Under the pieces are notes generated by a model that worked only from the letters and a program-made list of their open reading frames with translations, searched no databases and had not been told where the DNA came from. A stretch of 36,451 bases of DNA. Origin: Minisyncoccia bacterium (GTDB lineage: Bacteria > Patescibacteriota > Minisyncoccia > Phycocordibacterales > UBA918). Shown here piece by piece: positions 16,521 to 34,189 of this stretch (its first letter is position 1; every line of letters starts with the position of its first letter). The stretch spans positions 1 to 36,451 of the forward strand of contig JBNKWW010000061.1 in the NCBI GenBank assembly GCA_050299955.1, read 5' to 3'. A program made the position numbers and the translations under genes.

Positions 16521-16580
16521 CTTAAATAAGGCGAGGAAAACCGGTGGCTAAAGCCACCGGTTTTCCTCGCCTTATTTAAG
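16521..16580. repeat. 60-nt perfect palindrome (28-bp arms) at the dnaA 3' end
   Basis: CTTAAATAAGGCGAGGAAAACCGGTGGC-taaa-GCCACCGGTTTTCCTCGCCTTATTTAAG. The right arm covers the last two codons and the stop codon of dnaA. Confidence 0.9.
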
Positions 16581-17954
16581 CATCATTCTTATCTGAGTCA
16601 GTTCTTCCTCTAGGTTGCTGTTGCCTTTTAATTCGGTTTTGATTTTTTCACAGGAGTGGATCACGGTAGTGTGGTCGCGACCACCTAGTTTCTGTCCAAT
16701 TGAAGGATAAGAAATGGCGTAATCTTCGCGTAAGATATACATAATCAACTGTCTCGGCTTCACCACCTCTTTGCGCCTAGTTTTTTCGTAAATGGTTGCT
16801 GGCTCTATTTCAAAGTATTTAGCCACCTTCTCTACCACATCAGATATAGCTAGAGTTTTTCTTGGGCGGGTACTATTTTTGATGATTAACTTTACTTCGT
16901 CGAGTGACAGAGTGCGTCCCAAAAGCTGTGATTGACACATTATGCTGTTTAAAGCACCTTCGAGTTCACGAATGTTCCCTTCTATGGTGTAGGCGAGGTG
17001 TTGTACGACGTCTTCAGAGAGTGTGATGCTGTTTTGAGCTGCTTTAGCTTCCAAGATAGCAGCACGAGATTCTATGTCTGGAGCCGGTATGTCGATAATC
17101 ATTCCTTGAGAGAATCGTGACTGAAGTCTCTCTTCCATACCAGAGAGTAGTGCTGGGTGAATATCGCTCGAGAAAACAATCTGTTTATTGTTATCGTGCA
17201 TAGCGTTGAAGAGGTGGAATAGTTCTTCTTGAGTTTTGTCTTTGCTAGCCAAAAACTGAATGTCGTCCATGATCAAAACGTCGTATTGACGGTATTTGTC
17301 CTTAAAGTTATTGGCAGTTCCGTTTTGAAGGGAGTTAATAAAATCAACCACAAAACGTTCGCTGGTAACATAGAACACCTTTTTGCCGGCTTTTTTTAGT
17401 TGGTTCCCCACGGCTTGAATAAGGTGAGTTTTACCGTGACCAGTCTTACCGTAGATAAAGAGCGGGTTGTAGGCAATGCCGGGTTTTTCGCTTACTGTTT
17501 TGGCGGCGGCATGAGCCAGAGCATTAAATGGACCAATAACGAAAGTTTCAAAAGCATACTTAGGATTTAGATTGTCGCTCTTGTTGATGTAGTACTCTTC
17601 AAGGGGCAATGAGGCATTAACTGTTTGAGAGCGAGAACTTTCAATTTTTTTCTCGTTTCTTTGTACTACAGCATATTCAACACTGCGTACGTGTGGAGTT
17701 AGTTCGCGTAGAACTTTAAGAATCATTGGCTGGAATTTGTCAAAAAGCCAATCACGAACAAAGATACTTGGTACACCGATGGTGACAGTACCGTCGTCTA
17801 GAGAAACTATATGGGTGTCACGGAACCAAGTTTTGAAGTTGGCTGGAGTAATAGAGAGTTCAATGTTTACCAAGGCGTCGTCCCACAACTGTTTAACATC
17901 AATGTTTTCAGAATGAATGATGCTTTTTGGTTCAGTTTGAGATAGTGAGTTCAT
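16572..17954 (-). CDS. dnaA: Chromosomal replication initiator DnaA
   Basis: AAA+ Walker A GKTGHGKTHL, Walker B LIMDDIQF, sensor SSDIHP, and the domain IV DNA-binding helix GGRDHTTVIHSCEKI. Confidence 0.97.
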   Translation of the reverse strand: MNSLSQTEPKSIIHSENIDVKQLWDDALVNIELSITPANFKTWFRDTHIVSLDDGTVTIGVPSIFVRDWLFDKFQPMILKVLRELTPHVRSVEYAVVQRNEKKIESSRSQTVNASLPLEEYYINKSDNLNPKYAFETFVIGPFNALAHAAAKTVSEKPGIAYNPLFIYGKTGHGKTHLIQAVGNQLKKAGKKVFYVTSERFVVDFINSLQNGTANNFKDKYRQYDVLIMDDIQFLASKDKTQEELFHLFNAMHDNNKQIVFSSDIHPALLSGMEERLQSRFSQGMIIDIPAPDIESRAAILEAKAAQNSITLSEDVVQHLAYTIEGNIRELEGALNSIMCQSQLLGRTLSLDEVKLIIKNSTRPRKTLAISDVVEKVAKYFEIEPATIYEKTRRKEVVKPRQLIMYILREDYAISYPSIGQKLGGRDHTTVIHSCEKIKTELKGNSNLEEELTQIRMMLK

Positions 17955-20005: not shown

Positions 20006-21169
20006 TTACTCCCCTACCCTATACCACCAAAGGGTGCCATTCATTTTGTTAATGAAGAATATATTTCCGTTACTTAGAGTGAAATCGGTTACATCGATAT
20101 CAAATCCTGCTTGGTCGGTTAGATTGATGGATAGTTCGGCAATGCCACTTTCAAGATCCACCTTCCAGATATTGTCCTGGCTGTTTAGTATCCCTTTATA
20201 CCAAGAGACGGCGTAGTTTTGGTTGGCATTATTGTCTCCAGCACACCACATTGTTCTGGTAGCTGTTTTACTAAAGGCACATTTTTCCGGTAACACGATG
20301 ATTGGTACTTCGGTTTTTTCGTTTGTGGTTGTGTCCAGCTTCTCGGAAACCATAAAGCCTAGAGTTTTGTCGTAATATGAATAAACCAAAGTACCGGCTT
20401 CTTGGCTGTTGATGCTGGTTAGAGATGTTTTTGTTTCGGTCAGTTTTTGAATGTTATTTCCAGAAACTGTATATACACCACCAGATAAAACGCTTGAGAC
20501 TTTGTTTGAGATTGTTGCGCTTCCGTCATCATTCCAGGAAACTCTTGCGTCAACAAAAGGTATTTGCCAGAGAACATTTGTTTCCATTGTTTTTCGATCA
20601 AAGCTGTACGCAAATGTTTGGTTGTTTAGAACTTTTGTGTAGTAAAGGGTTGTGCTGGAAACCAAGTAAAAATCTCGGCTATCGGTTGGTATTATTAAAG
20701 TGTCTTGCGCAGTATCGCTTATTTGATACCAAGCGGTACTGGTTGTGTTGTCGTCTTCTTCTCTAACCAGAACAACACTCCCGCCTTCTGGGTCAAATAC
20801 AGCATCAGTAACCTTGCCAATTGTATTGTTCAATAAACGATTTTCTGACTTGGCATTCAAATCCATCTTAAACACATAACCTGTCCCCCTTTCGGCATAG
20901 AGAATGTTTTTTTCTTCAAGAGACTCGATAAACGCGTAGCCTGCAATTGGTCGCTCGGTTAGTTGTTCAAGAGGTGAAGAAGATATTTCAATGAGTGTCT
21001 CCTCAGGCGGAGTAGTGATTGGGGTTGGTTCGTTGACTCCGATATTGGTGAGATTTGAAAAAGTATCTTTAACTGCTGTCGGCGCACCAAAAAAAAGTAA
21101 ATACACCCACAAGCCGGAAGCTAGTATGAGAATGGTGACTCCGATTATGGTAAATATTTTTTTGGTCAT
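20006..21169 (-). CDS. N-terminally membrane-anchored extracytoplasmic protein, unknown function (last gene of the T4SS-like operon)
   Basis: TM anchor IFTIIGVTILILASGLWVYLLFF. The remainder is rich in short beta-strand-like repeats, so a propeller-like fold is a guess. Confidence 0.6.
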   Translation of the reverse strand: MTKKIFTIIGVTILILASGLWVYLLFFGAPTAVKDTFSNLTNIGVNEPTPITTPPEETLIEISSSPLEQLTERPIAGYAFIESLEEKNILYAERGTGYVFKMDLNAKSENRLLNNTIGKVTDAVFDPEGGSVVLVREEDDNTTSTAWYQISDTAQDTLIIPTDSRDFYLVSSTTLYYTKVLNNQTFAYSFDRKTMETNVLWQIPFVDARVSWNDDGSATISNKVSSVLSGGVYTVSGNNIQKLTETKTSLTSINSQEAGTLVYSYYDKTLGFMVSEKLDTTTNEKTEVPIIVLPEKCAFSKTATRTMWCAGDNNANQNYAVSWYKGILNSQDNIWKVDLESGIAELSINLTDQAGFDIDVTDFTLSNGNIFFINKMNGTLWWYRVGE

Positions 21170-21194
21170 AGATTCTTTAATTATTTAACTGATT

Positions 21195-21728
21195 TTACTT
21201 GGCACAGTAAATTAAATTTGGTTTTTCAGAGTATGTTCCACCAGCTGCGGTACATTCATTAATGGCTTCCTTGCAACTATAGTATGTTGGGGTTAGTTTC
21301 GTGCAAGGAATTTTATCACCCGTCTTTTCTGCTTGGGTATTTTGAGTGGCTGTGTTTTGAACCGTCACCTTAGAAGCGTTTCTCAAAATATCCAGTTTGG
21401 TTATTTCTGGGTTGATGGTGCCAAGTAAAGTGGTGGCACTCAAAATTATTAAAAGACCAATTAAAGAAGCTTTTATGTCTTTCTTAGCATCGGCCTTGCT
21501 AGTCACCACGTCGGTCAGCATGTATTTAAAACCAGCCATCATTAACTTGATTACCGCCAGCAAGGCAGCAGCGCCGATGAGTAGTCGGTACACAGCGTTT
21601 ACGTATATTTCGGTAGAGGTGATACTTCCCCCGATGAATGGTATGTCTTCAAAAGTACTAAAAGCCAAACTACTAAGTGGCAGTGAGAAGGTGATAAGAA
21701 AGACAAATGTTTTGGTTAGATTTTTCAT
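21195..21728 (-). CDS. TrbC/VirB2-type T4SS pilin candidate with a C-terminal 4-Cys extension
   Basis: A signal peptide (..PLSSLA/FS) is followed by two hydrophobic helices separated by a short basic loop (LLIGAAALLAVIKLMMAGFKYM...KKDIKASLIGLLIILSATTLLG). This is the topology of VirB2/TrbC and 'T4SS pilin' family proteins. Confidence 0.5.
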   Translation of the reverse strand: MKNLTKTFVFLITFSLPLSSLAFSTFEDIPFIGGSITSTEIYVNAVYRLLIGAAALLAVIKLMMAGFKYMLTDVVTSKADAKKDIKASLIGLLIILSATTLLGTINPEITKLDILRNASKVTVQNTATQNTQAEKTGDKIPCTKLTPTYYSCKEAINECTAAGGTYSEKPNLIYCAK

Positions 21729-22468
21729 AGCCCGAAGTTTAAGTTAAAGAAACCTGAAGCGTTTTCGGTCAGTTTGATTTGGTGTCCAAGTTTGAAACCA
21801 ACACGGTAACTTCGCGTTGTGTCTTCTGGCCGGAAGAGGGTTACTTTACGCCAGGCATTGGTTTCTAGGGGTTGTCTGTCTATTGTCCACTCGGTTAGGA
21901 GTTCGGGTGGTTCGTCGGTTTGGCCAATAAAGTATGGCGCTACCAGAATGGAACTTTCAGTGCCGATGAGGTTGAAAGAACCTTGAATGGCACTCTGAGA
22001 TTGACCGCGGAGAGGGTTGTCTTCATAAAATACAACTTCATAAGGGCTTAGATCGACGTAGGTGTTTTTCTTTATGATGTTGCCACTTGAATCCGTTACT
22101 GATAGTCCGACCAAAGTTCGTCCAGCCAGTGGGGCGGTGAAAGTTAGTATGTTTGGAGTCTCGCTTTTGGCCATGGCTGCCTTGCCGTTTATTTGCCAAG
22201 AATAGTTAGAGGTCTCGCCTCCGGTTATAAGGGCTATTACTCTAACTGGATTACCGGCGGAAGGTTCTCTTCGTCCTTCGTAAAAACTGGGTACGTAAGT
22301 ATCGGCTTCAACAATTAGATCAACGTTTATAGTTGGTGATGACTGCCCTATTTTGCCACTAGACACTGGTAAATATTGGTTCGACAAAGAAGAAGTTTGA
22401 GCCAAAAGTGGCAATGGCAAAAAAACCAAGGCAATTAGTGTAATTGATAAAAAAGCAAAACGGCTCAT
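21725..22468 (-). CDS. Secreted protein, unknown function
   Basis: Signal peptide MSRFAFLSITLIALVFLPLPLLAQT. Its stop overlaps the next start in an ATGA 4-nt overlap, implying translational coupling with the pilin gene. Confidence 0.6.
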   Translation of the reverse strand: MSRFAFLSITLIALVFLPLPLLAQTSSLSNQYLPVSSGKIGQSSPTINVDLIVEADTYVPSFYEGRREPSAGNPVRVIALITGGETSNYSWQINGKAAMAKSETPNILTFTAPLAGRTLVGLSVTDSSGNIIKKNTYVDLSPYEVVFYEDNPLRGQSQSAIQGSFNLIGTESSILVAPYFIGQTDEPPELLTEWTIDRQPLETNAWRKVTLFRPEDTTRSYRVGFKLGHQIKLTENASGFFNLNFGL

Positions 22469-22515
22469 ATCATAAATAGGATAGCACGTAAAAGGCTTTA
22501 AATTGGTGATGGCTG

Positions 22516-23112
22516 TTAATCCAGCTCTTCTTTGGCGGTAAAGACAGGCCAGAAAATTGCCCAGGGTACTAGGTTAAAAAGAGGAATAAGATAGAAGGAA
22601 AAAGCCATAGCCAGAAATAGAATTCCTTTACCGTGGAATGGGTGCATTCCACGGGCCTTCATAATGACAAAGGCGGTTACTAAGGAGAAACAACCACAAA
22701 GTAGGGTTACAATCATTCCAATAAGCATGAGAGCGATGGCGGCGTCACTAAGTGACCCAAAGGTGACTGTGTCGGCAGCGCTACCAAGCCAAGTTTCATC
22801 TAGTATTGCACCGCCCCCAAGACTAACGAGACTAAGTACTCCAAACAAAATCTGAATGACATATATAGGAAGTGTGCTTTCAAATACCATCGTTACTGAT
22901 GTGACTGCGGCAGCTATTTTGGCGGGTGCTTTAGCGACTTTGCGAGCGTTTTGAATTACTTGTCGCTGACTACGTGGAGAGTTGTCGTTAGCTGCTGCTC
23001 TGCGGTTGTCATTGACGGCGTTTGGCCCACTGTTTCTCGAGCGTTGTCCTAGTTTGATGCCAGTGTTGTATGGCGCAGTTTCTTTTTTAACATTTTGGAC
23101 TTTTGGTGGCAT
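22516..23112 (-). CDS. Polytopic membrane protein with a basic disordered N-terminus, unknown function
   Basis: About 70 aa of N/R/Q/A-rich N-terminus are followed by about 4 predicted TM helices. Confidence 0.55.
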   Translation of the reverse strand: MPPKVQNVKKETAPYNTGIKLGQRSRNSGPNAVNDNRRAAANDNSPRSQRQVIQNARKVAKAPAKIAAAVTSVTMVFESTLPIYVIQILFGVLSLVSLGGGAILDETWLGSAADTVTFGSLSDAAIALMLIGMIVTLLCGCFSLVTAFVIMKARGMHPFHGKGILFLAMAFSFYLIPLFNLVPWAIFWPVFTAKEELD

Positions 23113-23148
23113 AGGTATGTAAAGTATACATCATATAGAGAATGGCAG

Positions 23149-23210
23149 GAGGCGAAATTAAATTGAGGAGTTGCCCCCTAGGGGGCAACTCCTCAATTTA
23201 ATTTCGCCTC
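23149..23210. repeat. 62-nt perfect palindrome inside the T4SS-like operon
   Basis: GAGGCGAAATTAAATTGAGGAGTTGCCCC-ctag-GGGGCAACTCCTCAATTTAATTTCGCCTC is palindromic through its centre. It lies in the 106-nt gap between the virB4-like gene and the next ORF, with no adjacent U-tract. Confidence 0.9.
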
Positions 23211-23218
23211 TCATACTT

Positions 23219-25015
23219 TTAACCTTGTGACGCCTTAAGCTCAGCGCGGGCATTTTTGATTTGCAGAATCTGTGACGGGTCGGAAGTGATGATTTGGTCT
23301 TCAGTGTAGGAAGCAATGACTTTGATGGCTACGTGCTTCAGGCCCGCAAAGAATATTCCCTCACCCACTCCGGACTCGAGTAGTAGCATTTTTTCTTCGT
23401 CCGTGAGGTTGAAGGTTCTTTGGATGTTGTCGATAGCAGTTGGCGACTGCTTCATCAAAAGTTGTAGCGAAGAGTTGGTGATCATCGGTACGCCGTAAGG
23501 AGAACGAAGGAAGTCATCAACGTCTTGGGTAATAGTGGAAATGCCAAGGTAGTACTTGCGACCACGTTTGGCAAGTGAAAAAAGGAACGAAGCGGTATCT
23601 TCCGACTTCATCATCCACCAAGCCTCGTCGATAACAAGAAGACGCTTCTGGAGGCGACGGCGAATTGCGCTCCAAATGTGGTTGGTGATGATATACATCG
23701 CCACAGTTTTGAGTTCGTCTTCCATATCGCGAAGTGAGAACACTACGAACTTTTGGTTGATATCAACGTTGGTAGCTTGGTTCATAAAACCAGACCAAGT
23801 ACCACTAGTGTATTTTTGGAGACGTGAAATAAGTGAGGAACTGCCTTCCATTCCGGCCAAAACCATCTCAAAGTCTGAGAGAAGTGGCGGTTCCATATCA
23901 CGAAAATCAACGTCACCGGTAATGTCTTTAAGTGCGTAAACCTCATGTAAAGCTTGGTCGATAACAGTTTCCTCTTCTGGAGAAAGACCGCCAAGCATTA
24001 AGCGGAAGAGACCAATCAGCTCAATAATATGTGAGCGAAGCACATCCTCAGGAGCTTCGTCTTCTTGCGGTGCCGGTAGGTCGAAGGGGTTAATATGGTG
24101 AGCCGAAGAAAGTGAAATATTAAAGAAGCGTCCACCGGTAGCCTCGGCCAAGTATTCGTATTCCCTTTCCGGGTCAATCACAATCACTTCAGTACCAAAC
24201 ATCAAAGAGCGAAGAATTTCTAGTTTGGTGGTGTATGACTTGCCGGCTCCGGAAGTAGCGAAGGTTACCGAGTTGTAGTTGGTCAATTGATAGCGGTCAA
24301 AAAGAACCAGTGAAGAGTTGTGACGGTTAATACCGTAAAGAATTCCCGAGTCGCTGGTCAGGTCGAATGAGGTAAAGGGAAAGAAACTGGAAAGTGGTGA
24401 AGAGTTGAACTTGCTATGTACTAAGAGTTCGTCGGTCATATTAGGCAAAACACTGCGGAGTCCTTGTTCTTGCTGGAAGAGTGCCGGTTTCATATAAACA
24501 AGACGCGAATCAAGAATACCTTTAACTTCGGATTCGATTTTGTTAAGAGTGTCGTCATCGGCGCCATAGACAGCAATGTACAAACCAACATCAAAGAGCT
24601 TTTCTTCAGCTTGTTGAAGTTTGTCGCGTAGATCTTCAAGGTTACGGTAGGCGGCTTCGAGTTGTGGGTCGCGCACCATTCCCTTCTCGGCGTTCATATT
24701 GATTTGACTTTGCACCTCAGCCACTTTTTTTTGAAACTTTTTCAAAGTTTCAGCAGTGTCTATTGGATGAATCATTATGGTAATGTCCATCTCATATTCA
24801 AGGTTCAAAACCGGTTCGAGCCAGCCGTCGTTTAGGTAACGCGGATAAGACACGGCAAAGAAAACACGCGCGTTGGTCCCGCTTACGTTAATACTACGCG
24901 GCGTAACACTGACAGCCGAAGGCGCTACTACATCTTCGAGAGTCATCAAAGCACTCTCGGTGTCCAATACTTGTTCCCCTTTTGGTTTTTGTTTTAATAA
25001 ATCCAATATACCCAT
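23219..25015 (-). CDS. virB4: VirB4/TrbE/ConE-family T4SS ATPase (middle plus C-terminal ATPase domains)
   Basis: Walker A ATSGAGKSYTTK and Walker B RLLVIDEAWWMM (the hallmark DEAW). The downstream ISTITQDVDDF is also present. The N-terminal part fits the Gram-positive VirB4 pattern (..YPRYLNDGWLEPVL..). Confidence 0.85.
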   Translation of the reverse strand: MGILDLLKQKPKGEQVLDTESALMTLEDVVAPSAVSVTPRSINVSGTNARVFFAVSYPRYLNDGWLEPVLNLEYEMDITIMIHPIDTAETLKKFQKKVAEVQSQINMNAEKGMVRDPQLEAAYRNLEDLRDKLQQAEEKLFDVGLYIAVYGADDDTLNKIESEVKGILDSRLVYMKPALFQQEQGLRSVLPNMTDELLVHSKFNSSPLSSFFPFTSFDLTSDSGILYGINRHNSSLVLFDRYQLTNYNSVTFATSGAGKSYTTKLEILRSLMFGTEVIVIDPEREYEYLAEATGGRFFNISLSSAHHINPFDLPAPQEDEAPEDVLRSHIIELIGLFRLMLGGLSPEEETVIDQALHEVYALKDITGDVDFRDMEPPLLSDFEMVLAGMEGSSSLISRLQKYTSGTWSGFMNQATNVDINQKFVVFSLRDMEDELKTVAMYIITNHIWSAIRRRLQKRLLVIDEAWWMMKSEDTASFLFSLAKRGRKYYLGISTITQDVDDFLRSPYGVPMITNSSLQLLMKQSPTAIDNIQRTFNLTDEEKMLLLESGVGEGIFFAGLKHVAIKVIASYTEDQIITSDPSQILQIKNARAELKASQG

Positions 25016-25025
25016 ACCTTTAATA

Positions 25026-25661
25026 CTAACCTATATCCGGTGCTTTACCTTGCACATCTCCCGGATTAAAAATGTGATAGAAGAGTTCTACCAACTCGTC
25101 ATTTTGGAGCGTAATGGTGCGAATACCAATTCGTGAGAGTCCTTGCTCTACCAAGGCAGCCCTTTGCTCTAGTTGTAATTTGTGTTCAGTGAAGTCCTTA
25201 TCGTCAAAATAAACACTGTTTTTCTTGCCAAAAAGATTGCTAAAGCCTTTTAAGTTGGACTGCAGGTTAGCGGCAATTGGAGTATAAGGAATAATGATAA
25301 AGAAACTCTTACTCATCACGTCTACTTCTTTGGTGAAGTTTTTGATGAATTGCATATACTCGCGGAGCTGGATACGCATCAAATCGTTGTCTTGTTTGTT
25401 TTCGCGTTCTTTTAGGAGTTTAAGATATGGTTCTATGTTTAGACGTCGTGATTGGATATAGAATTGCACTGAGAAGTCTAGGGTGTTGAGGAAGTTTTGA
25501 AATTGACGCAAGATGGCTTCTTGTTCATCTAGTGATTTAAGGGCGAAGTTTATAGAAGAAGCCAAAAGCACGGTATTCATTTGACCGTTCTTCAAAATAA
25601 CCACGTTATCTTTTATGTCGCGCAAGGGTACAAAATCTTGAGTTGTGTTTTTGGTAGCCAT
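25026..25661 (-). CDS. Protein resembling the extreme N-terminal domain of Gram-positive VirB4 (possible split VirB4)
   Basis: The segment LRDIKDNVVILKNGQMNTVLLASSINFALKSLDEQEAILRQFQNFLNTL recalls the first roughly 200 aa of Tn916 ORF16/ConE-type VirB4. It ends 10 nt before the ATPase ORF. Confidence 0.4.
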   Translation of the reverse strand: MATKNTTQDFVPLRDIKDNVVILKNGQMNTVLLASSINFALKSLDEQEAILRQFQNFLNTLDFSVQFYIQSRRLNIEPYLKLLKERENKQDNDLMRIQLREYMQFIKNFTKEVDVMSKSFFIIIPYTPIAANLQSNLKGFSNLFGKKNSVYFDDKDFTEHKLQLEQRAALVEQGLSRIGIRTITLQNDELVELFYHIFNPGDVQGKAPDIG

Positions 25662-25666
25662 TATAG

Positions 25667-26107
25667 TTATTTTTGGTTAGCCTTCATTTCTAGTTTGCGA
25701 GCCAAAGAAGTAAGATTGCTCCCCTCTTCTGGCGGGGTGTAGGTGGGGCTGGAAAAAGAATTTCCCTCTTGGTCTTGGTAAACACTCTCATTCTTTTTGC
25801 GCCATAAGTACAATTTTGTATTTCGGGTGTAAGCAATCACTGATTCTAGAAATCGAGAAAAGGGCTGATTATTTACCGGATAAAAACCAAGAGCAAACGC
25901 GAGACCGGCAACCGGAAGACCGAGAAGTACAAAAACAATTAATGGTGCCGTAAAGAAGAGTACGGTAGCGAGTCCAAGGCCGCCACCTAAGTAAACAAAC
26001 TGACGCCAAGTAAGGGGGCCAAAAATTTTGTCTTCTATTTCAATAAATTGAGGTACTTCAAAACGCATAAAATAATGACACACGAGAAGTCTTTCAAGGT
26101 GTGCCAT
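25667..26107 (-). CDS. PrgI-family (VirB3/ConD-like) small membrane protein
   Basis: MRFEVPQFIEIEDKIFGPLTWRQFVYLGGGLG followed by two TM helices matches the PrgI-family signature. The true start may be the internal ATG at 26068. Confidence 0.65.
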   Translation of the reverse strand: MAHLERLLVCHYFMRFEVPQFIEIEDKIFGPLTWRQFVYLGGGLGLATVLFFTAPLIVFVLLGLPVAGLAFALGFYPVNNQPFSRFLESVIAYTRNTKLYLWRKKNESVYQDQEGNSFSSPTYTPPEEGSNLTSLARKLEMKANQK

Positions 26108-26129
26108 TATTATACGATAGTTTCTACTT

Positions 26130-26831
26130 TTATTTTGATTCAGCCGTGGACGAATTACCTATAACATCGTCTTGTGTAGAACGATGCACTTCCTCATCGT
26201 CATTATTTTTATTTACAAATACTCCGTAACCGTGAACATTTTTAGCATCTGATTCAAATGTATGAATAGCTGGGATGCGAGGAGTTTCTGTTTGATCCGG
26301 TTTGGTAATTGTGGGTTGTTCGGGGGTAATAACTGGTGTACTTGGCGGCATTGCAGAAGCTGCAAAAGTGGGAGCTGGCTCTATTTCGTCCGCCGGCGCC
26401 TGAAACTCTTTTAAGGCCGAAGCCGCCTCAGCTGAAGGCAAGACTTCTTCAATACCGGAACCTTCCAAAGTAGCGCCGGCGACCACCTCCTTCCCTGGAG
26501 TGAACTGGTCATCCAAAAAGTTCATTATCGGCTCAACCAAAGAAAATAGTTCTTGATCAATATAGGCGGTAATGATTTCTGCTATTGAGGTTTCTATTTC
26601 TAGAGATTCTTTTATTCGGTTGATAAAACCTTGACGCGGCAAAAACATATAAAGAACCAACTCAATCTCCATTCGTAGTATATCTTCTTGTTCTTTGGTA
26701 AAACGATTTTCTACCGCCACTTCTTCTATCACTTTGTCTACGATGCCATAATCAAGAAGTTCGCGAATATCCGGCGGTAGGTTTTGGTACCGTTCGATAA
26801 ACTCTTCTGTTTGATTTGGATTTGTGTACAT
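26130..26831 (-). CDS. Hypothetical acidic protein with a Pro/Thr-rich linker
   Basis: A 233-aa ORF tightly packed in the operon, with no recognisable motif and no TM segment. Confidence 0.55.
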   Translation of the reverse strand: MYTNPNQTEEFIERYQNLPPDIRELLDYGIVDKVIEEVAVENRFTKEQEDILRMEIELVLYMFLPRQGFINRIKESLEIETSIAEIITAYIDQELFSLVEPIMNFLDDQFTPGKEVVAGATLEGSGIEEVLPSAEAASALKEFQAPADEIEPAPTFAASAMPPSTPVITPEQPTITKPDQTETPRIPAIHTFESDAKNVHGYGVFVNKNNDDEEVHRSTQDDVIGNSSTAESK

Positions 26832-26846
26832 AAGCTTTAACTACTT

Positions 26847-28850
26847 TTAACCTCCTTTTATTTTGCTCTTCGCCTCTTTTCGTATTGCGTCACCAGCATT
26901 CTCATTGAGTGCCGCGGTTCTTCCTGTGAATAGATTTTGTAACCAGCTCATACCTTCAACCACACCGGCGTAACCACCAGCTTGTTTTGCTGCTTCTTTT
27001 TCTTTGTCGGCCAATTTTTTCTTATCAGCCATGATTTCATCCATTTTAGTGTCTCTCGCAGGGTCTTTCTTGTCCATAGCGGCAAAGGCAACCATTTTTT
27101 CTTTGAGTTTGTCTTTGTCGTCTTTAATATCATCGAGCAAGGTTTGGTCGACATTGCGCTCTGTACCAATTTGATAGCGATGCATTTCTCGGCTAACAGC
27201 CTCTTTTTGTTTGGCTAGAGCCTCTGTGTCGGCTTCTATACCTGCTTTAAGATCGTCAATTTGAGCCTGATACATTCTTTGCTCGTCGGCATCGCCAGTC
27301 TGACTTTTGTCTTTTTGTAATTTGCGAGCTTTTTTCTTGTCAGCGTCTATCTTTGCCTCAAGAGCATCCTGTTCGGCACGGAGGCGTAGTACTGTTTCAT
27401 CGTCATCATCAACTTTTCCAAAAATTCTCTCTGTGTAGGCTTTCTCTTTCTTAGCCAATTCTTCTTTTTGTTGTACGTATCCAATTTTGGAACCTTCACC
27501 AAGGTTAAGTGCCTGACTAACTCTTTTGGCCCCCGGTGCTTGGCGCACGTCGTAGCTGACATTCCCAGCTTTGTCTGCTGCTTCGAGTGCGCGTCTCGCC
27601 ATAAATGATTTAAATTTGCCATATTTCTCCGCTCCTTCTACGGACCCGATATCTCTTAGTTTTCCACGAGCGCCGGACTTGTCCATTTTTTCCAAAACAG
27701 CTCCAGCACCTTTTCGCAAACCATATGCAGCGAGGCCAGCAGTTAAACCACCAGTTACAGCACCAGTCCCTTTCTTCACCATATTCATTCCATAATCCGC
27801 GCCAACGGCACCGAGGGATTTGGCTACCATTAGTGAAGCATAAGCAAACCCCATCACCACCATAAAATAAATTATAGAACCCCAGAAACTGTAGCCACCT
27901 TGAACGTTGCTGAAACTTTGCAAAGCATAGAGTGACAAGTACAGCATAAAAATATATGCCGGTGCTATCAGAGATTGGTTGATGAGTTTTTTGAAGTAGT
28001 TACCCCCACGACCTGCCAATTGTGGGAAGATAAGTCCTAAGAAAATCACCGGCGCGAATATCATCAAAAAAGTAAGATACATAAAACGAGTGAACAGTAT
28101 GAGACTGCCGGCAGCGAAGATGAATCCCATAGCGATGAGCATTGCCATCACAAAGAAAGCCAAAACCACAATACTCCAACCAATGTCGGCGTCGCTCTCC
28201 ACGCTACTGTCCGCATATTCTGAAGGGTCGGTGAGTTCTTCTGCTACCGAACCACTATTTTCCGGAAAGTTGTTAAGACTGGTAGCGGCAATAAAACCAC
28301 TGGAAATACGGTTGATTGGAATACCAAGAATGGTATCTGGATATTGATTTGCCACCATCAATTCACTTACTTGATAGGCCAAGAAGTTGTTGAAATCGAT
28401 TATGACACGTACAAAATAAAGGCTAAAGTTTATTAGTACTGCTGCCACAATAATGCCGCCCAAGAGACGTTTGGTTTGGCTGTCGTCGGAAGAGAGAATG
28501 GTTTTGAAGCCAGCCCAAATGACACCAAAGATAAAGAGTAGGTTGAAGATGTCGCGTACCACGGCCCAGAGAGCTTCGACTGCCTGAGTCAGTCCTCGAT
28601 TGTCGGAGAATTCAGCCATATTGACTACAAACAGTGAGATGCTGGCATCTAAAAGCCAAGCACCAATACGCGCAAAGAAAGCACCGATGGCAGTAACCAC
28701 GTAATAGATGACACTCTGAATAGTGCTTAGTTCCCTATCGGCTGCATAAGCCGGCATAGTAATGAGAGAAAAAATAGCCAATACCAAAAATAGAAAGAGG
28801 GATACTCTAAAAGTATTTCTCACTATTTTGTTTTGGTAAGACAAGTTCAT
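26847..28850 (-). CDS. VirB6/TrbL/ConG-like polytopic channel protein with a C-terminal charged coiled-coil
   Basis: Signal or anchor sequence plus at least 8 predicted TM helices over about 400 aa. A K/E/D-rich helical tail of about 250 aa follows (EQDALEAKIDADKKKARKLQKDK...). Its size and its position relative to PrgI/VirB4 resemble ConG/VirB6. Confidence 0.5.
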   Translation of the reverse strand: MNLSYQNKIVRNTFRVSLFLFLVLAIFSLITMPAYAADRELSTIQSVIYYVVTAIGAFFARIGAWLLDASISLFVVNMAEFSDNRGLTQAVEALWAVVRDIFNLLFIFGVIWAGFKTILSSDDSQTKRLLGGIIVAAVLINFSLYFVRVIIDFNNFLAYQVSELMVANQYPDTILGIPINRISSGFIAATSLNNFPENSGSVAEELTDPSEYADSSVESDADIGWSIVVLAFFVMAMLIAMGFIFAAGSLILFTRFMYLTFLMIFAPVIFLGLIFPQLAGRGGNYFKKLINQSLIAPAYIFMLYLSLYALQSFSNVQGGYSFWGSIIYFMVVMGFAYASLMVAKSLGAVGADYGMNMVKKGTGAVTGGLTAGLAAYGLRKGAGAVLEKMDKSGARGKLRDIGSVEGAEKYGKFKSFMARRALEAADKAGNVSYDVRQAPGAKRVSQALNLGEGSKIGYVQQKEELAKKEKAYTERIFGKVDDDDETVLRLRAEQDALEAKIDADKKKARKLQKDKSQTGDADEQRMYQAQIDDLKAGIEADTEALAKQKEAVSREMHRYQIGTERNVDQTLLDDIKDDKDKLKEKMVAFAAMDKKDPARDTKMDEIMADKKKLADKEKEAAKQAGGYAGVVEGMSWLQNLFTGRTAALNENAGDAIRKEAKSKIKGG

Positions 28851-28858
28851 ATTTCGGT

Positions 28859-30373
28859 TTAACTACTTGGTGGGTAGTCAAAGGTTCCGCCACAGCTCTT
28901 TCTCTTGGTCGCTATGTCGTAAAGGAATTCATCAATCAGAGCGGCTAGTTTGATGTTTAGGTATTGTTCGCGGAGTTTGTTGACTTTGCTACTGGTAGTG
29001 AAGAGGTCTTGACTCTTGTAACTGAGGTAGGTATTCATTACGGCCAACTTGGTGCTGCTGTCAGTAGCGTTTGCGTATTGAGTATTAAGTGTCTCAAGAA
29101 TGCTTATAGTTGTACTAGATACCGCGTAATTAGTAGTGGCGTTGTCTTTTTCGGTTTTGAGTTCATCAGTAAGTTCAAGATCAAAACACTTGGGGAATTT
29201 AGTTGAGTTATCTGTAAGTTTTACATCAAGTTCATCAAATATATCAAGTATATCTTGCTGCAGTTCTTGATATTCTTTTTCTGCTTTTAAAGAGTTCTTA
29301 ATAACGCTGGCCGAGCTGGTTTGGTATTTGCTCACATCATCTTGGGCTAGAGCGTCGGCATAGGAGAGGTCGCCGGAGTCACCAAATAAATTGACGCTGT
29401 AGTCTGGGTTGCCAGAGAGTCCAAGCACACCGGCTGCACCTTGCAAAACTTGGTTGGTGAGGTTGGTCATAAATGATGAGGCGACTTCGTTGAACTCATC
29501 CATATCAAGAATCTGCAGAGCTGGAAGTTCGCCAAGTAGGAATGATGCACTATGGGAGTCAACACTTAATGGTTTTGTTATATAACATTTTTGGGTTGAG
29601 CCACTACCGCTGGCGTTTGGTATATCTTGGCAGACTTCTGTTGGTTCGAAGCCGCCAGAGAGATCTGCTTTTTGTTTGGAGATGGCCAATTCTTCTTGGA
29701 TGGCGTTGTTTAGTTTTACTGTTTCCTTCAAGATTTGGCAGCTAGTATTTTTTGCGTCGCAACTTCTAAAAGCTAGATAAAGAACGTCGCCTGGGTCCAT
29801 ATTGTCCAAAGTGTCAGCCTCAGAACATTGGTTGTTGGTTGAGGTTTCGTCGTAGTATTCTTGGACAAAATTGTTGTAGAGAACGGTTCTTAGTTCGTGA
29901 GTTTGTGCTGATGAACACTGATTATAAGTGCCGTCACCGAAGATAAACTCGGTCGCTGCTTTTTCTATGGCTTCTTGATAGTAGTCGGCGAAGTTTTGGA
30001 TGAAAGGTATTTCGCCATTTTGACCATCGGCTTGCCCACCTAGCCATTTTAGTAGCTCACTTTGTAGCTGTTGTGTCAGATGCTCTTTGGTAGCATACAC
30101 TAAAGGGTCGAGATTAAACTCTTTATTTTCAAGGTTTTGTTGGAGGTCAGTAAAAGTGTCGGTCAAATCCTTGATAGAGTTTAGAAGTGTCGGAGTTTCT
30201 GATTGGTCGGATACAATGGTGACTTCTGTTCCACCAGTTACAGAGCTGGTAAGGCCACCAACCAAGTTATCTAAGAGGCCAGCTTTCGCACTTAAGGGAG
30301 AAACCATAAGAACTCCCACAAAAAACAAGGAGACAAGGTTATTTATGGTTATTTTCTGAAAAATTTTTTTCAT
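28859..30373 (-). CDS. Secreted Cys-rich protein, unknown function
   Basis: Signal peptide LVSLFFVGVLMVSPLSAKA. There are about 10 cysteines, apparently in pairs, and no recognisable motif. Confidence 0.6.
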   Translation of the reverse strand: MKKIFQKITINNLVSLFFVGVLMVSPLSAKAGLLDNLVGGLTSSVTGGTEVTIVSDQSETPTLLNSIKDLTDTFTDLQQNLENKEFNLDPLVYATKEHLTQQLQSELLKWLGGQADGQNGEIPFIQNFADYYQEAIEKAATEFIFGDGTYNQCSSAQTHELRTVLYNNFVQEYYDETSTNNQCSEADTLDNMDPGDVLYLAFRSCDAKNTSCQILKETVKLNNAIQEELAISKQKADLSGGFEPTEVCQDIPNASGSGSTQKCYITKPLSVDSHSASFLLGELPALQILDMDEFNEVASSFMTNLTNQVLQGAAGVLGLSGNPDYSVNLFGDSGDLSYADALAQDDVSKYQTSSASVIKNSLKAEKEYQELQQDILDIFDELDVKLTDNSTKFPKCFDLELTDELKTEKDNATTNYAVSSTTISILETLNTQYANATDSSTKLAVMNTYLSYKSQDLFTTSSKVNKLREQYLNIKLAALIDEFLYDIATKRKSCGGTFDYPPSS

Positions 30374-30375
30374 AA

Positions 30376-31218
30376 TTATTCCACTTTAATAAGGCGAGAA
30401 GCCGTATCGCTACTACTCCATTGTATACCAAGCTGATCTAATTTTAGGTAAAGATTTGTGATAGCCGTGTACAAAGCTTGGCGGTCGGCTTCAAAGCGGC
30501 GGAGGCGAATCATTGTCGGTAGACTGTCCTCGAAGACCTTACGGAAAGCGGTAATATCTGAATACATTGCTTGGTAAACATTTATTAAAGAAAGATGTTC
30601 CTTAATAAGAGAATCTGGTACCGGTAGCACCAACATTTTGTCGCGCATTCCGGCATAGGCCTCTATTATCGGGTCCAATTTAATGATTTGTTCCGGTACG
30701 TTGGCGGTGAGAGAGGTACTTAATATGGCCAATTCGTTTGGAGAATCTTTAGCGCTAGTGTAGCTTAGGGCGATTTCAGCTACTTCATTGCCATATTGGC
30801 GAAGATTAGCAGCAGAGTTGCTGCTAATTACATTTATGTCATTTTCTGTGTATTGTTTGTCGATTATAAGAGATTGCAGTTTTTGGCTGGCAGAAAGTAA
30901 AGTAGCGCCGGTATTAAAGCCGGTACTGCTGTTTTGGGCTAAGCTAGCCACGGCAAAATCAGTTACTAGTTCTTTGGTGTAGTTGGTCCCTGCACTTTCC
31001 TCACTCAGGTTGATGGTGTTTTTGGCTAGAGCTTCTTGCCAGTCTGGGACTTGGTCGTTGTTGGAGTCTGTGACTTGTATGAAGTTTCTGGGAATAGTAG
31101 TGACAGTGGATTCTTCAAGGGTGATGGTCGGCTCCTTTTGGCTGGACAGCCAAAAGGAGCCGACCATAATGGTTAGACCGGCAATTAAGGCAATCAAAAC
31201 TCGCGGATGAATTTTCAC
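30376..31218 (-). CDS. N-terminally anchored extracytoplasmic protein, first gene of the T4SS-like operon
   Basis: GTG start at 31218 is preceded by GGAGG (31225-31229 on the minus strand) and TATAAT (31242-31247). TM anchor VLIALIAGLTIMVGSFWL. Confidence 0.6.
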   Translation of the reverse strand: MKIHPRVLIALIAGLTIMVGSFWLSSQKEPTITLEESTVTTIPRNFIQVTDSNNDQVPDWQEALAKNTINLSEESAGTNYTKELVTDFAVASLAQNSSTGFNTGATLLSASQKLQSLIIDKQYTENDINVISSNSAANLRQYGNEVAEIALSYTSAKDSPNELAILSTSLTANVPEQIIKLDPIIEAYAGMRDKMLVLPVPDSLIKEHLSLINVYQAMYSDITAFRKVFEDSLPTMIRLRRFEADRQALYTAITNLYLKLDQLGIQWSSSDTASRLIKVE

Positions 31219-31280
31219 AATAACCTCCAGATTACTCCCCTATTATAACCTAGAGGAGTTGAGTTTGAGTGAAGTTATCT

Positions 31281-32114
31281 TCAGTTTTTGTGCGAATGAT
31301 TTAATTTTTCAGCTAGCTTTATCCAAGTGTCTATATTTAAATCTTCAGCGCGTATGTTATGTGACAGTTCCATTGCAGTAAAAACTTTTTCCAGTTCTTC
31401 TCTTTCAAAACTAGGGTCTTCTCCTTTAGCTAAGTTACTCAAGAGTTGTTTGCGTTTCTGACCAAACCCGATGTGTAACAGTTTAAAAAAGAATTTTTCA
31501 TCGAAGTTTTTAAATTTGTTACGAGAAATATTATCGATGGCAATAATGCCGGAATCAACCTTTGGAGGTGGTGTAAAGTGGCCTTTTCCAACGGTTTTTA
31601 TGTATTTCGGTTCGCCGTAAGCTTTGATTGAAAGTGATAAAATAGACTCTTTTTCATCTCGAGATAAATCACTGGTGATTCTCTTAGCAACCTCTTTTTG
31701 AATAAGAAAAACCAAAGTGTTGGGCTGAATCGGACTTTCCAGAAAAGCGCGGAAAAGCATTCCGGTTAAATAGTAAGGAATATTGGAGACCACTTTGAAG
31801 TGGTGGTCGGTGAGGCCGAGCGCAGCGAGGCCGATTTCTCGTACGTCGTGATGATAGACTCGCAATTGTTTGTCGGCAATTTCAGTGGCAAAAGTTTTTT
31901 GGAGACTTTCAATAGCACGTTTGTCAGCTTCGAGAGCGATAACTGTTGCTCCTTGTGCGAGGAGTTCGCGGGTCAAAGCACCGGTACCAGGGCCAACCTC
32001 AACCACAGTGTCACCTGTTTCAATGTTGGCAGCTTCAACAAGCCAGCGTGGGACAACATCGCTGTTCAGAAAATGTTGACCAAGGCTTTTCTTGGTTTCG
32101 AACTTTTCGGTCAT
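31281..32114 (-). CDS. rsmA: 16S rRNA (adenine1518/1519-N6)-dimethyltransferase RsmA/KsgA
   Basis: LGQHFL, the SAM motif VEVGPGTGALT, and VVSNIPYY. The start was chosen at MTEKFETKKSLGQHFL, because the longer track ORF runs through the upstream terminator hairpin. Confidence 0.93.
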   Translation of the reverse strand: MTEKFETKKSLGQHFLNSDVVPRWLVEAANIETGDTVVEVGPGTGALTRELLAQGATVIALEADKRAIESLQKTFATEIADKQLRVYHHDVREIGLAALGLTDHHFKVVSNIPYYLTGMLFRAFLESPIQPNTLVFLIQKEVAKRITSDLSRDEKESILSLSIKAYGEPKYIKTVGKGHFTPPPKVDSGIIAIDNISRNKFKNFDEKFFFKLLHIGFGQKRKQLLSNLAKGEDPSFEREELEKVFTAMELSHNIRAEDLNIDTWIKLAEKLNHSHKN

Positions 32115-32160
32115 ACGAGTAAGATACTGGATGGGTGGACAGTGTGCAAGGTAGGTTAGT

Positions 32161-32189
32161 AAAAGGCCGGCGCTTCGCGCCGGCCTTTT
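32161..32189. terminator. Terminator AAAAGGCCGGCGC-ttc-GCGCCGGCCTTTT (identical to 14722-14750)
   Basis: 29-nt exact repeat located just after the pcrA stop on the minus strand. Confidence 0.85.
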
Positions 32190-32197
32190 ACCACACA

Positions 32198-34189
32198 TCA
32201 ATCAATCTCTATTACTGTCCCCAAAAATCCATCATCACTATCGAAGCCTCCGAAGCTGTTGCCACTAGAACTTCTAGTCGTTCCTTCCCCACCCTCAATG
32301 TGTTCACTCTCAATATCTTTAAGGAAAGTTGAAGCAATGTTAATTCTCTGAGTACCAAAAATAGTACGCATCTTGGCATAAGTGAGGAATACTTTTTTCT
32401 CAGCACGTGTCAGCGCCACATAAAAGAGTCGCCTCTCTTCTTCTTGGTCTGCCCCTTTTTCATCAAGTCGTTCGTGTGGGAATAGTCCTTCTTCAAGACC
32501 GGTCACAAAAACATAAGGAAACTCAAGGCCTTTTGAGGCGTGTACCGTCATCAATCGCACGGCGTCACGTTCTTCTTTGGCCTTCATCTCGTCTTGATCA
32601 CTCTGCAAAGCCGCGTCTTCTATCACCGCTGCGACAGCTTCTTCCGGATCCATTTCGTCGTAACGCACCGCGAGAGTTACCAACTCTTGCAAGTTTTCAA
32701 AACGCTCCAGGTCTTCTTCGGTGCCGTTTTTCTTAAGGTCGGATTCTATTCCGGTACGTTTAATAATGAAGCGTAAAGTCTCGGACAACTTTTTAGTTCT
32801 GGCTTCGTCAGCTATGTCTTGCATCATTTGGTCAAACTGTTCTACTTTAGTTAGTGTCGCTCCTTTCAACTCACCTCGTCGACCTTCCAGTATCTTGAGT
32901 AAGGTGGCTGGGCCGATACCGCGAGTTGGTGAATTGATGACTCTGGAGAGGTCAGCAGTACTGTCTGGGTTGAGTGACAAACGTAAATAAGAAAGCACAT
33001 CCTTCACCTCCTTCCTTTCAAAAAATTTGGTGCCAAGCATTTGGTATGGAACCTCGAAGTTGATAAAAGCTTCTTCCAAAACGCGTGATTGGAAGTTGGT
33101 GCGGAAGAGTACGGCGATATCCGATGGCGCTGCCCCGTCAGCTATGAGTGACTTGGCAGTCATAGCTATGTATTCCGCCTCGTCAGCTCCTGTTAAAGCG
33201 ACGAAAAGAGTAATTTTTTCTCCATCAGCATTGCTGGTAAAAACAGTTTTATCTACTCGGTTTTGGTTCTTTTTGATAACACTGTTGCTGGCTGCGATGA
33301 TGGTTTTGGTTGAGCGGTAGTTTTCTTCAAGTAAAACAGTTTTCGCGCCAGCAAAGTGTTTTTCAAACTGTAATACGTTTTTAATGTCAGCTCCGCGCCA
33401 TCCGTAGACTGACTGGTCGATGTCGCCTACTACACAGATATTTTGCTGCTCGCCAGCCAAGAGGCGGGCGATTTCGTACTGTACTCTGTTGGTGTCTTGA
33501 TACTCGTCAATGTGGATATAACGGAAGCGATTTTGTAGCTTATTTAGAACTTCTGGATTTGATTTGAGCATCCCGAGTGTTTTTACAAGAAGGTCATCAA
33601 AGTCTAGGGCGTGTTCTTCTTTGAGAGTTCGGTCATAGCGTTCCCATACATCGGCTACTACCTCAGCAAAAGGTGAAGAGATTTCGCTGCGAAAATCAAC
33701 CAAGCTAATAGCATCGCCTTTATTTCTTGATATGGCACTCAGAACCTTACGCGGTTCAAAACGTTTAGGGTCGTGACCACCAGCCTCGAGAGCTTTTTTT
33801 ATTGCGCGGGAGCTATCACTTCGGTCATAAATAACGAAGTGTTTGCGAAGACCTAAAGCTTCGTGAAACTCACGCAGGAGCCGTACACCAAGAGAGTGAA
33901 AGGTGGTAACGGTCGGTTCGCTGTCTATGGCTGCAGAATTGCTCCCTGGAAATTCCTTTATTAGAGCGGTCACTCGTTCACGCATTTCTTTAGCGGCTTT
34001 GTTGGTGAAGGTGACAGCGAGAATGTTGTGAGGGGCTACGCCTTGGTGAATGATGTGTACAATGCGGTGAGTAATCACTCTGGTTTTTCCCGATCCAGCA
34101 CCGGCCAAAACCATCAAAGGGCCTTCAGTGGTCAAGACTGCTTCTTGCTGCTTTTCATTTAAGCCTTCGATATAAGGTAAATTCGTCAT
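32198..34189 (-). CDS. pcrA: UvrD/PcrA-family ATP-dependent DNA helicase
   Basis: Motif I AGAGSGKTRV, Ia TFTNKAAKEM, II DEYQDTN, and V/VI TVHASKGLEF and YVALTRA. The ATG at 34189 is preferred over the upstream TTG at 34225. Confidence 0.93.
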   Translation of the reverse strand: MTNLPYIEGLNEKQQEAVLTTEGPLMVLAGAGSGKTRVITHRIVHIIHQGVAPHNILAVTFTNKAAKEMRERVTALIKEFPGSNSAAIDSEPTVTTFHSLGVRLLREFHEALGLRKHFVIYDRSDSSRAIKKALEAGGHDPKRFEPRKVLSAISRNKGDAISLVDFRSEISSPFAEVVADVWERYDRTLKEEHALDFDDLLVKTLGMLKSNPEVLNKLQNRFRYIHIDEYQDTNRVQYEIARLLAGEQQNICVVGDIDQSVYGWRGADIKNVLQFEKHFAGAKTVLLEENYRSTKTIIAASNSVIKKNQNRVDKTVFTSNADGEKITLFVALTGADEAEYIAMTAKSLIADGAAPSDIAVLFRTNFQSRVLEEAFINFEVPYQMLGTKFFERKEVKDVLSYLRLSLNPDSTADLSRVINSPTRGIGPATLLKILEGRRGELKGATLTKVEQFDQMMQDIADEARTKKLSETLRFIIKRTGIESDLKKNGTEEDLERFENLQELVTLAVRYDEMDPEEAVAAVIEDAALQSDQDEMKAKEERDAVRLMTVHASKGLEFPYVFVTGLEEGLFPHERLDEKGADQEEERRLFYVALTRAEKKVFLTYAKMRTIFGTQRINIASTFLKDIESEHIEGGEGTTRSSSGNSFGGFDSDDGFLGTVIEID

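Follow-up and report, generated by a model that had tools for sequence, protein, structure and literature searches.

The 36,451-bp contig JBNKWW010000061.1 of a Minisyncoccia bacterium (assembly GCA_050299955.1) carries a cluster of eleven genes, several of them related to components of type IV secretion systems (T4SSs), that is flanked by yidC and rsmA, with rpmH-rnpA and dnaA-dnaN alongside. This raises the question of whether the cluster is a conjugative element lodged among housekeeping genes or a resident apparatus of the cell and, if the latter, what it serves. The window analysed is this one entire contig. An original prediction, made from the sequence of the window, took the cluster for a domesticated surface apparatus wedged into a core housekeeping neighbourhood, and not for an ordinary integrative conjugative element (ICE). 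The flanking genes are as it described, and the analysis leads to the same conclusion. The cluster is an inherited core locus and not an ICE, a reading already published for such loci (Wang et al. 2023, Cell, PMC10633639; Quinonero-Coronel et al. 2025, Microb Genom, PMC12102498; reviewed in PMC12857230). It is very likely the Paceibacteria version of the chromosomal Patescibacteria-clade T4SS, derived from the MPF-FATA systems, detached from DNA processing, vertically inherited and serving association with a host.

Organization of the locus

The cluster comprises eleven co-directional open reading frames (ORFs) on the minus strand that fill 20006-31218, named here g11 to g1 in the direction of reading. 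The gaps between them, computed from the coordinates in the order g11 to g1, are 2, 8, 15, 22, 5, 10, 106, 47, -4 and 25 nt. The G+C content of the cluster (0.40-0.46) is equal to that of the flanks. The ORFs agree exactly in number, coordinates and length with the original prediction, and the same is true of their packing, with gaps of -4 to 47 nt apart from a single one of 106 nt that holds a palindrome. The features are as follows, folds being provisional.

g11, 30376..31218, minus strand: 280 aa; N-terminal transmembrane (TM) anchor, short TSP3-like acidic motif, putative extracellular helical bundle; lineage-specific accessory protein
g10, 28859..30373, minus strand: 504 aa; Cys-rich and mostly helical, either secreted or anchored; candidate component of the surface or tip
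g9, 26847..28850, minus strand: 667 aa; VirB6-like polytopic channel protein; C-terminal tail long and charged ('extended VirB6')
g8, 26130..26831, minus strand: 233 aa; predicted cytoplasmic; small N-terminal helical domain and disordered-looking Pro/Thr/Glu-rich tail
g7, 25667..26107, minus strand: 146 aa; PrgI/VirB3-like membrane protein, PF12666
g6, 25026..25661, minus strand: 211 aa; TrsD-like, the VirB4 N-terminal domain as a gene of its own
g5, 23219..25015, minus strand: 598 aa; VirB4 ATPase of MPF-FATA affinity, comprising the middle and C-terminal P-loop domains
palindrome, 23149..23210, no strand: perfect, 62 nt, inside the virB4-g4 spacer 23113-23218
g4, 22516..23112, minus strand: 198 aa; small membrane protein with a disordered-looking basic N-terminal region and about three TM segments
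g3, 21725..22468, minus strand: 247 aa; secreted, with putative tandem Ig-like beta-sandwich domains
g2, 21195..21728, minus strand: 177 aa; T4SS pilin of the VirB2 type; signal peptide, two TM helices, C-terminal extension that varies and contains Cys
g1, 20006..21169, minus strand: 387 aa; N-terminally anchored, putative extracellular TolB-like beta-propeller; conserved Cys pair C297 and C309

The core machine

The core of the apparatus is built around the ATPase encoded by g5. This scores 364.7 bits against the NCBIfam model conju_CD1110 (cutoff 325), matching positions 182-733 of the 752 in the model, and has an E-value of 1.8e-26 against the Pfam family P-loop_TraG. Its translation contains the Walker A motif ATSGAGKS and the Walker B motif VIDEAW, by which it had originally been recognized as VirB4. 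The VirB4 models that score highest are those of conjugative families, namely CD1110, Mycoplasma ICE and TraC. Among the best 120 of 8000 scored database matches (E ≤ 1e-20) the proteins are 84-100% identical to that of the window, and the few of these entries that bear the name of an organism are almost all Candidatus Paceibacterota or Kaiserbacteria.

The g6 ORF lies 10 nt upstream of virB4. Its product matches the NCBIfam models VirB4_plasma over positions 100-254 (E = 2.9e-13), TrsD NF041427 (E = 2.8e-6) and CD1110 over positions 2-114, and in a newer version of Pfam it falls into PF26593 (TraC-like). Since g6 covers the start of the CD1110 model and g5 most of the remainder, the two together constitute one VirB4. 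The 211-aa protein, which the original prediction had left among its unknowns, is thus identified as a TrsD-like VirB4 N-terminal domain. The division into two genes was also considered as a frameshift or an assembly error, and this was rejected; in 79 of 79 related loci TrsD is a separate and distinct ORF, never fused with virB4, at a distance that is mostly 1-9 nt.

The membrane partners are of more uneven clarity. The product of g7 matches PF12666 (PrgI) with 47.5 bits (cutoff 27), and has a hydrophobic hairpin at residues 38-78. That of g2 matches PF18895 (T4SS_pilin) with 31.1 bits (cutoff 26.6), with further matches to TrbC/VirB2 (E = 0.0018) and to the Mycoplasma ICE pilin-like model NF045849 (E = 3.8e-5); in the alignment of the pilins the core is conserved and the Cys-rich tails are variable. 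Both proteins had been predicted as such, and both score above the cutoffs of their hidden Markov models (HMMs). The product of g9 has at least six TM-like windows within residues 9-349 and none beyond, where some 300 charged residues follow. In the Pfam and NCBIfam searches the window protein matches neither VirB6 nor any other family, and comparison of the family profile with PDB sequences gave nothing meaningful. However, four of 32 orthologues match PF04610 (TrbL/VirB6; best E = 2e-8), and that of one of the two closest relatives (L082) matches PF19590 (TrbL_3) weakly. The label VirB6 is transitive, since it is some of the orthologues and not the window protein that match VirB6 models, but it is a reasonable one that the topology fits. 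The VirB6 of the original prediction thus stands by way of its orthologues and topology, and not by a match of its own.

Conservation among relatives

Relatives of the locus were collected by a scan of one genome per species, giving 80 loci that all derive from metagenome-assembled genomes of Patescibacteria. Those with informative titles are Kaiser-, Nomura- or Taylorbacteria, Paceibacteria or Parcubacteria, while many are third-party annotation (TPA) records titled 'uncultured Candidatus Saccharibacteria'. Complete loci, spanning rsmA to yidC, are present in 43 other species-level genomes. In tblastn searches with the window proteins the order uvrD-rsmA-(g11 to g1)-yidC-rnpA-rpmH-dnaA-dnaN is nearly fixed across related genomes. 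Because extracellular proteins evolve fast, iterated profile searches were made over all the ORFs of the loci. Families g1, g3, VirB4, TrsD, g8, VirB6 (g9) and g11 are each found in all 43 complete loci, PrgI and g10 in 42, and the pilin (g2) in 41, with a constant gene order save for a swap of g1 and the pilin and occasional duplications. The family of g4 is found in 14. Among all the loci its homologues are detected only in the 28 closest; about 20 loci lack a gene at this position, and in many of the more distant ones the position is held by a small multi-TM protein of no detectable similarity. The test of synteny suggested with the original prediction therefore finds the locus at the same site in 43 of 43 cases.

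The two closest relatives, L082 and L083, have VirB4 proteins that are 91-93% identical to that of the window and carry the same genes, those of L082 on an 848-kb contig (GCA_040384045.1); all of their called flanking genes that have a Pfam match are housekeeping genes. In the close relatives listed, the flanks that were fetched (at most 10 kb on each side) are almost filled with syntenic genes, so that there is little room in them for a gene encoding a relaxase, a coupling protein or an integrase. Identities to the proteins of the window have medians of 71% for VirB4, 66% for UvrD and 60% for DnaA, and of only 23-37% for the extracellular components. VirB4 identity exceeds that of DnaA in 31 of 34 genomes. 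As judged from these comparisons the cluster belongs to the core genome, is inherited vertically and is under strong selection, and the pattern of identity fits a conserved motor with a fast-evolving surface.

Membership of a published class of secretion systems

A survey of 3,035 Patescibacteria genomes (PMC12102498) found VirB4 in 2,417, and almost all of the copies form one clade nested in MPF-FATA. Near virB4 lie TrsD, PrgI/VirB3, VirB6 and VirB2-type pilins. Relaxases occur in only 103 of the 3,035 genomes; VirD4-like genes occur in most, rarely near virB4 and usually far off. In Paceibacteria the neighbours of the T4SS are typically dnaA, dnaN, rnpA, ksgA and rpmH. The window locus has the same constitution, with a VirB4 of MPF-FATA affinity beside genes for TrsD-like, PrgI, candidate VirB6 and VirB2-type pilin proteins, no relaxase or coupling protein nearby, and dnaA, dnaN, rnpA, rpmH and ksgA/rsmA as neighbours. 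Nothing essential differs from the class as it is described there, and every defining feature of the clade that could be tested is present, VirB6 only transitively. On these grounds, of gene content and model matches, the locus is a member. The other six genes of the cluster are neither named nor assigned in the article, as judged from the sections consulted and from searches of its text for terms.

The member of the class that has been studied by experiment is that of Southlakia epibionticum ML1 (SEML1_0006-0019; Saccharimonadia), where the homologous cluster including the pilins was found by transposon sequencing (Tn-seq) to be essential for epibiotic growth, and where neither a coupling protein nor a relaxase was recognizable (PMC10633639). 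The ML1 and window loci share the core order of VirB6-like protein, PrgI, TrsD-position protein and VirB4, an exported Ig-like protein further downstream, pilins within the cluster and a position at the start of the chromosome, and no relaxase or coupling protein is recognized in either. They differ in that the ML1 cluster includes six pilins in tandem, two VirB6-like proteins of giant size and a lysozyme/glucosaminidase, whereas that of the window includes one pilin, one VirB6 and no hydrolase, a LysM-M23 peptidase being encoded 3.3 kb off on the opposite strand. A TolB-like propeller and families g10 and g11 are further features of the window locus. ML1 is the one case in which essentiality is established. 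A recent review (PMC12857230, 2025) names the Patescibacteria systems as the only T4SSs of monoderms to have pilins, and as the one T4SS that is essential to the cell bearing it.

Conjugation systems of the MPF-FATA type in Gram-positive bacteria (pGO1/pSK41 Trs, pIP501 Tra, pCF10 Prg, ICEBs1 Con and the C. difficile CTn) provide a more distant comparison. A VirB4 scoring above the CD1110 cutoff, a split of TrsD and VirB4 as in pGO1, PrgI/ConD and VirB6/ConG-type membrane proteins and the lack of outer-membrane core proteins are common to both. By contrast, no relaxase, coupling ATPase or integrase is found with the window locus, and no VirB8-like or VirB1-like gene is recognized in the cluster; it has a VirB2-type pilin, normally lacking in the conjugation systems; and it lies on the chromosome, is immobile and is conserved in the Paceibacteria genomes that were sampled. 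As tested for relaxase, coupling ATPase and integrase in the window and for variable presence among relatives, the locus lacks the features that define a conjugative element.

The accessory proteins

Direct searches of Pfam and NCBIfam with g1, g3, g4, g8, g9, g10 and g11 gave nothing above noise. Family profiles were made from positional orthologues and searched against PDB sequences; for the g8, g9, g10 and g11 families these returned only coiled-coil or low-complexity matches. The original prediction ascribed a signal peptide or a TM anchor to all seven of its unknown proteins. This holds for five of them; the other two, g6 (211 aa) and g8 (233 aa), contain no hydrophobic segment.

The product of g1 has a single TM segment at residues 2-33. 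Its family profile matches the TolB beta-propeller 6pnv with an E-value of 6.8e-6 over about 180 residues, PD40 repeats are detected in two of 34 orthologues, and C297 and C309 are invariant in the alignment. It is provisionally a membrane-anchored TolB-like beta-propeller. That of g3 has a signal-peptide-like N-terminus ending in AQ, and its family profile matches the Ig-like domains of Hoc (3shs) with an E-value of 2.7e-6; among 34 orthologues 14 match BiPBP_C and five match Ig_3. A secreted chain of tandem Ig-like domains is suggested, again provisionally. The window protein, at 247 aa against about 320-350 aa, is without the first of three Ig-like repeats that all 33 aligned relatives keep.

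In g11 one TM-like segment (residues 1-26) is followed by an acidic TSP3-like motif (D51..D59-W60), and six of 35 orthologues match PF18884 (TSP3_bac). An AlphaFold2 (AF2) model with a predicted local distance difference test (pLDDT) score of 82 and a predicted TM-score (pTM) of 0.65 comprises a TM anchor, a disordered linker and an all-helical ectodomain. Comparison with PDB folds using Foldseek gave nothing significant, the best being four-helix-bundle sensor domains with E ≥ 0.34. The model thus suggests, for the present, an anchored helical bundle.

The g10 protein has an N-terminal hydrophobic segment and eight cysteines, of which C153, C183, C248, C263, C396 and C494 are conserved. Its AF2 model (pLDDT 68, pTM 0.38) is mostly helical, with a C-terminal bundle at residues 357-493 of pLDDT above 90. 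It has no match among PDB folds (best E = 0.41), nor in Pfam or PDB sequence searches. One orthologue bears F5/8-type-C and Big_7 (Ig-type) inserts, as expected of a surface-exposed binding protein, which g10 may be. For the g10 and g11 models together, Foldseek gave no match at E < 0.1, and no VirB5/TraC-like, VirB8-like or hydrolase fold. Neither the g8 protein nor its family profile has an informative match in Pfam or the PDB. In g4, TM windows lie at residues 75-106, 116-153 and 161-187, and no HMM matches in Pfam or NCBIfam. The possibility that it is a second pilin was rejected by hhalign (probability 2%).

A genome-specific palindrome between virB4 and g4

The palindrome at 23149-23210 occupies most of the 106-nt gap 23113-23218. 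It has a folding energy of -59.2 kcal/mol (z = -12.2 against shuffled sequences) and occurs as a single copy in the window. In the nearest relatives, L082 and L083, the virB4-g4 gap is 3 nt and has no palindrome. The window retains an ATG 4 nt past the virB4 stop, which opens a frame of only 18 codons that runs into the palindrome, and the g4 start lies about 100 nt beyond this ATG. Because the gap in L082 and L083 is so short, and the frame at the retained ATG is broken, the palindrome is taken to be an insertion specific to this genome, placed at the 5′ end of g4; the insertion looks to be of roughly 100 nt and to have displaced the g4 start. Its central 30 nt have no exact copy in the metagenome contig collection. 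Its absence from L082 and L083, its uniqueness in the window and the lack of an exact metagenome copy led to the rejection of two other identities, those of a regulatory element that is conserved and of a mobile element that is repeated.

In RNA the palindrome would probably fold into a hairpin, by which the genes downstream would be uncoupled or attenuated. Stems of 16 or more paired bases, not homologous to it, are found 17-46 nt after virB4 in five of the 80 relatives, with T-tracts after some of them, and a boundary of the transcript, or a point of attenuation, may recur after virB4 across lineages.

A proposed function and its alternatives

In T4SSs generally VirB3 and VirB6 provide the docking site of VirB4, which powers the extraction of pilin and the growth of the pilus. 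By analogy, TrsD and VirB4 would assemble on PrgI and VirB6 at the cytoplasmic face, forming a membrane motor and channel. The motor would expend ATP in pulling pilin from the membrane and polymerizing it into a short pilus or tube across the cell wall. The propeller, Ig, helical-bundle and Cys-rich proteins would then provide a wall-spanning collar and the end that contacts the host. Such an apparatus would serve cell-to-cell association with the host microbe upon which the reduced-genome bacterium depends, and exchange proteins or other molecules by means other than relaxase-led conjugation. In a bolder form of the proposal, g1, g3, g11, g10 and g8, which have no counterpart in characterized T4SSs, would make up a new wall-spanning and host-contact module that replaces VirB8, VirB1 and adhesins and acts as an import conduit for host-derived molecules; this is tentative, and on present evidence doubtful.

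That the cluster might be an ordinary ICE or its decayed remnant, with relaxase, coupling protein and integrase lying beyond the contig ends, is suggested by the conjugative families (CD1110, Mycoplasma ICE and TraC) among the best VirB4 models, and by the extent of the window, a whole contig of 36 kb with the remaining genome out of view. No relaxase, VirD4/TcpA-type coupling ATPase or integrase was found among the scanned window ORFs of about 100 aa or more. The window being a single contig, the absence of a relaxase and a coupling protein holds for the contig and not for the genome, and the original statement that DNA-processing genes are missing stands within that compass. Against an ICE, the same genes in near-identical order occupy the same housekeeping site in all 43 complete loci of different species, the fetched flanks of the relatives are nearly filled by syntenic genes, and the Pfam-matched flanking genes of L082 and L083 are all housekeeping. 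There is no tRNA, att-like repeat or integrase at the cluster borders, the sole tRNA of the window being at 2164-2237, and relaxases are rare in the phylum (PMC12102498). Conserved synteny, uniform G+C content and a VirB4 better conserved than DnaA effectively exclude an ICE, whose probability we regard as negligible, and uphold the domesticated surface apparatus originally proposed.

Two further alternatives accept a resident locus and differ as to what it moves. A machine for DNA import, like Helicobacter ComB or archaeal Ced, would bring in host DNA or nucleotides that the bacteria cannot synthesize, and Patescibacteria indeed lack de novo nucleotide synthesis (PMC10633639). These importers are likewise driven by a VirB4-family ATPase and free of relaxase, the cluster has neither a relaxase nor a coupling protein, and T4SS loci of the ABY1 class adjoin comF, recG and radA (PMC12102498). 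The P-loop region of the window VirB4 matches CedB weakly (35.3 bits, E = 5e-9), but this is far below the cutoff of 700 bits and covers only the shared P-loop; CedD scores 15.5 against 600, and no other Ced or ComB component was found. No competence genes flank the cluster in the window. In S. epibionticum deletion of comEC abolishes competence and leaves viability unaffected, whereas the T4SS is essential (PMC12857230), so its essential role there is not ComEC-dependent DNA uptake; an importer is quite unlikely here. A one-way injector of effectors or toxins against the host or competitors, like the bacteria-killing T4SSs of Xanthomonas and Stenotrophomonas or Streptococcus suis 89K, would take the place of a pilus-based device for adhesion and exchange. 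Effector-translocating T4SSs that lack a coupling protein are known (Ptl and Brucella VirB; PMC12102498), and protein export was suggested by the authors for the Saccharibacteria system (PMC10633639). Nevertheless no candidate effector or immunity gene and no coupling protein was found in or beside the cluster, and all eleven products look like structural or machine parts. We consider a dedicated injector unlikely, while recognizing that it overlaps with the host-association apparatus, whose substrate is left open, and is not exclusive of it.

Several points weigh against an apparatus of host association as drawn above. In Paceibacteria it is known from genes alone, and g9, the VirB6 candidate of the window, has no direct match to a VirB6 model. 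The genome may have a gene for a VirD4-like coupling protein outside the window, and the occurrence of such genes in most Patescibacteria genomes (PMC12102498) leaves room for DNA transfer or uptake. No VirB8-like (NTF2-fold) protein or VirB1-like cell-wall hydrolase was recognized among the eleven cluster proteins, and for this reason the wall-spanning architecture is a conjecture. The lack of a structural relative for g10 carries little weight, because the AF2 model is only moderate (pLDDT 68).

The chromosomal neighbourhood

The other genes of the window encode a SpoU methylase, PolA, TsaE, a PilB-type ATPase, RuvB, YebC, RuvC, TyrRS, PBP1A, DnaN, DnaA, RpmH, RnpA, YidC, RsmA, a UvrD/PcrA helicase and a LysM-M23 peptidase. 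They are almost all housekeeping genes, and with them come a MazF toxin gene and a LAGLIDADG ORF.

The minimum of the cumulative GC skew, at about 15-16 kb next to dnaN and dnaA, fits a replication origin at this point. There are 14 DnaA-box matches with one mismatch where 8.2 are expected, a number reached by three of 100 shuffled sequences; as this is barely above chance, the placement of oriC rests upon gene order and GC skew. The T4SS cluster, rsmA and uvrD (about 14 kb, 20006-34225) are transcribed towards the presumed origin, dnaA being at 16572-17954, and so run head-on to replication. This orientation, convergent with yidC, is shared by all the gene-order patterns that are listed for related loci; term searches of PMC12102498 gave no 'head-on', and its authors suggest that proximity to the origin may raise expression of the T4SS genes through a gene-dosage effect. 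The uvrD/pcrA gene overlaps rsmA by 4 nt, and 62 nt separate the end of rsmA from g11 (31281-34225, minus strand). The T4SS genes may be co-transcribed with uvrD and rsmA from a promoter in the divergent region 34226-34483.

Divergent from uvrD, and 3.3 kb from the cluster, is the gene of a LysM-LysM-M23 peptidase (34484-35569, plus strand), the nearest hydrolase. It is a conserved neighbour in the close relatives L001, L005, L012, L021, L022 and L082, and in locus L044 an M23 match lies immediately upstream of PrgI. The peptidase may be the missing VirB1-like wall hydrolase.

Some other features of the window were noted. An ORF of 94-96 aa directly downstream of dnaN is conserved (14771-15055 on the minus strand in the window, 19311-19595 in L082 and 10283-10573 in L083). 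Some 12 kb from the cluster, a gene at 6237-7970 (plus strand) encodes a PilB/GspE-type ATPase (T2SSE E = 2.8e-112; MshEN domain present), a component of type IV pili. A free-standing LAGLIDADG_3 ORF of 275 aa (1333-2160, minus strand) lies 3 nt downstream of tRNA-Lys(UUU) (2164-2237, minus strand), and may be a homing endonuclease or a homologue of such an enzyme that has been domesticated. At 182 aa the YebC/TACO1 ORF is short, and there is overlap between it and the ORF of RuvC, in which the RuvC domain starts only at residue 50 (9465-10551, plus strand); there may be a frameshift, or an over-extended RuvC start. At the contig end (35805-36384, minus strand) a MazF/PemK toxin gene (E = 8e-30) has upstream of it a 78-aa ORF that could encode the antitoxin.

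Significance

The class of system to which this locus belongs is already known, and the window provides a further instance of it. What is added are provisional folds for three of the six lineage-specific genes, and the observation that the position of five of these, g4 being the exception, is conserved to the same degree as that of the core. This gives a clean parts list for the T4SS of Paceibacteria, with ten families fixed in order across 43 species. The g10 and g8 families have no recognizable relatives, and are targets for structural and genetic work. The role of the T4SS in Patescibacteria is an important question, as about 80% of the genomes in this huge radiation carry the system. It is the only monoderm T4SS with VirB2-type pilins, and in the sole species where this has been tested it is essential for growth on the host.

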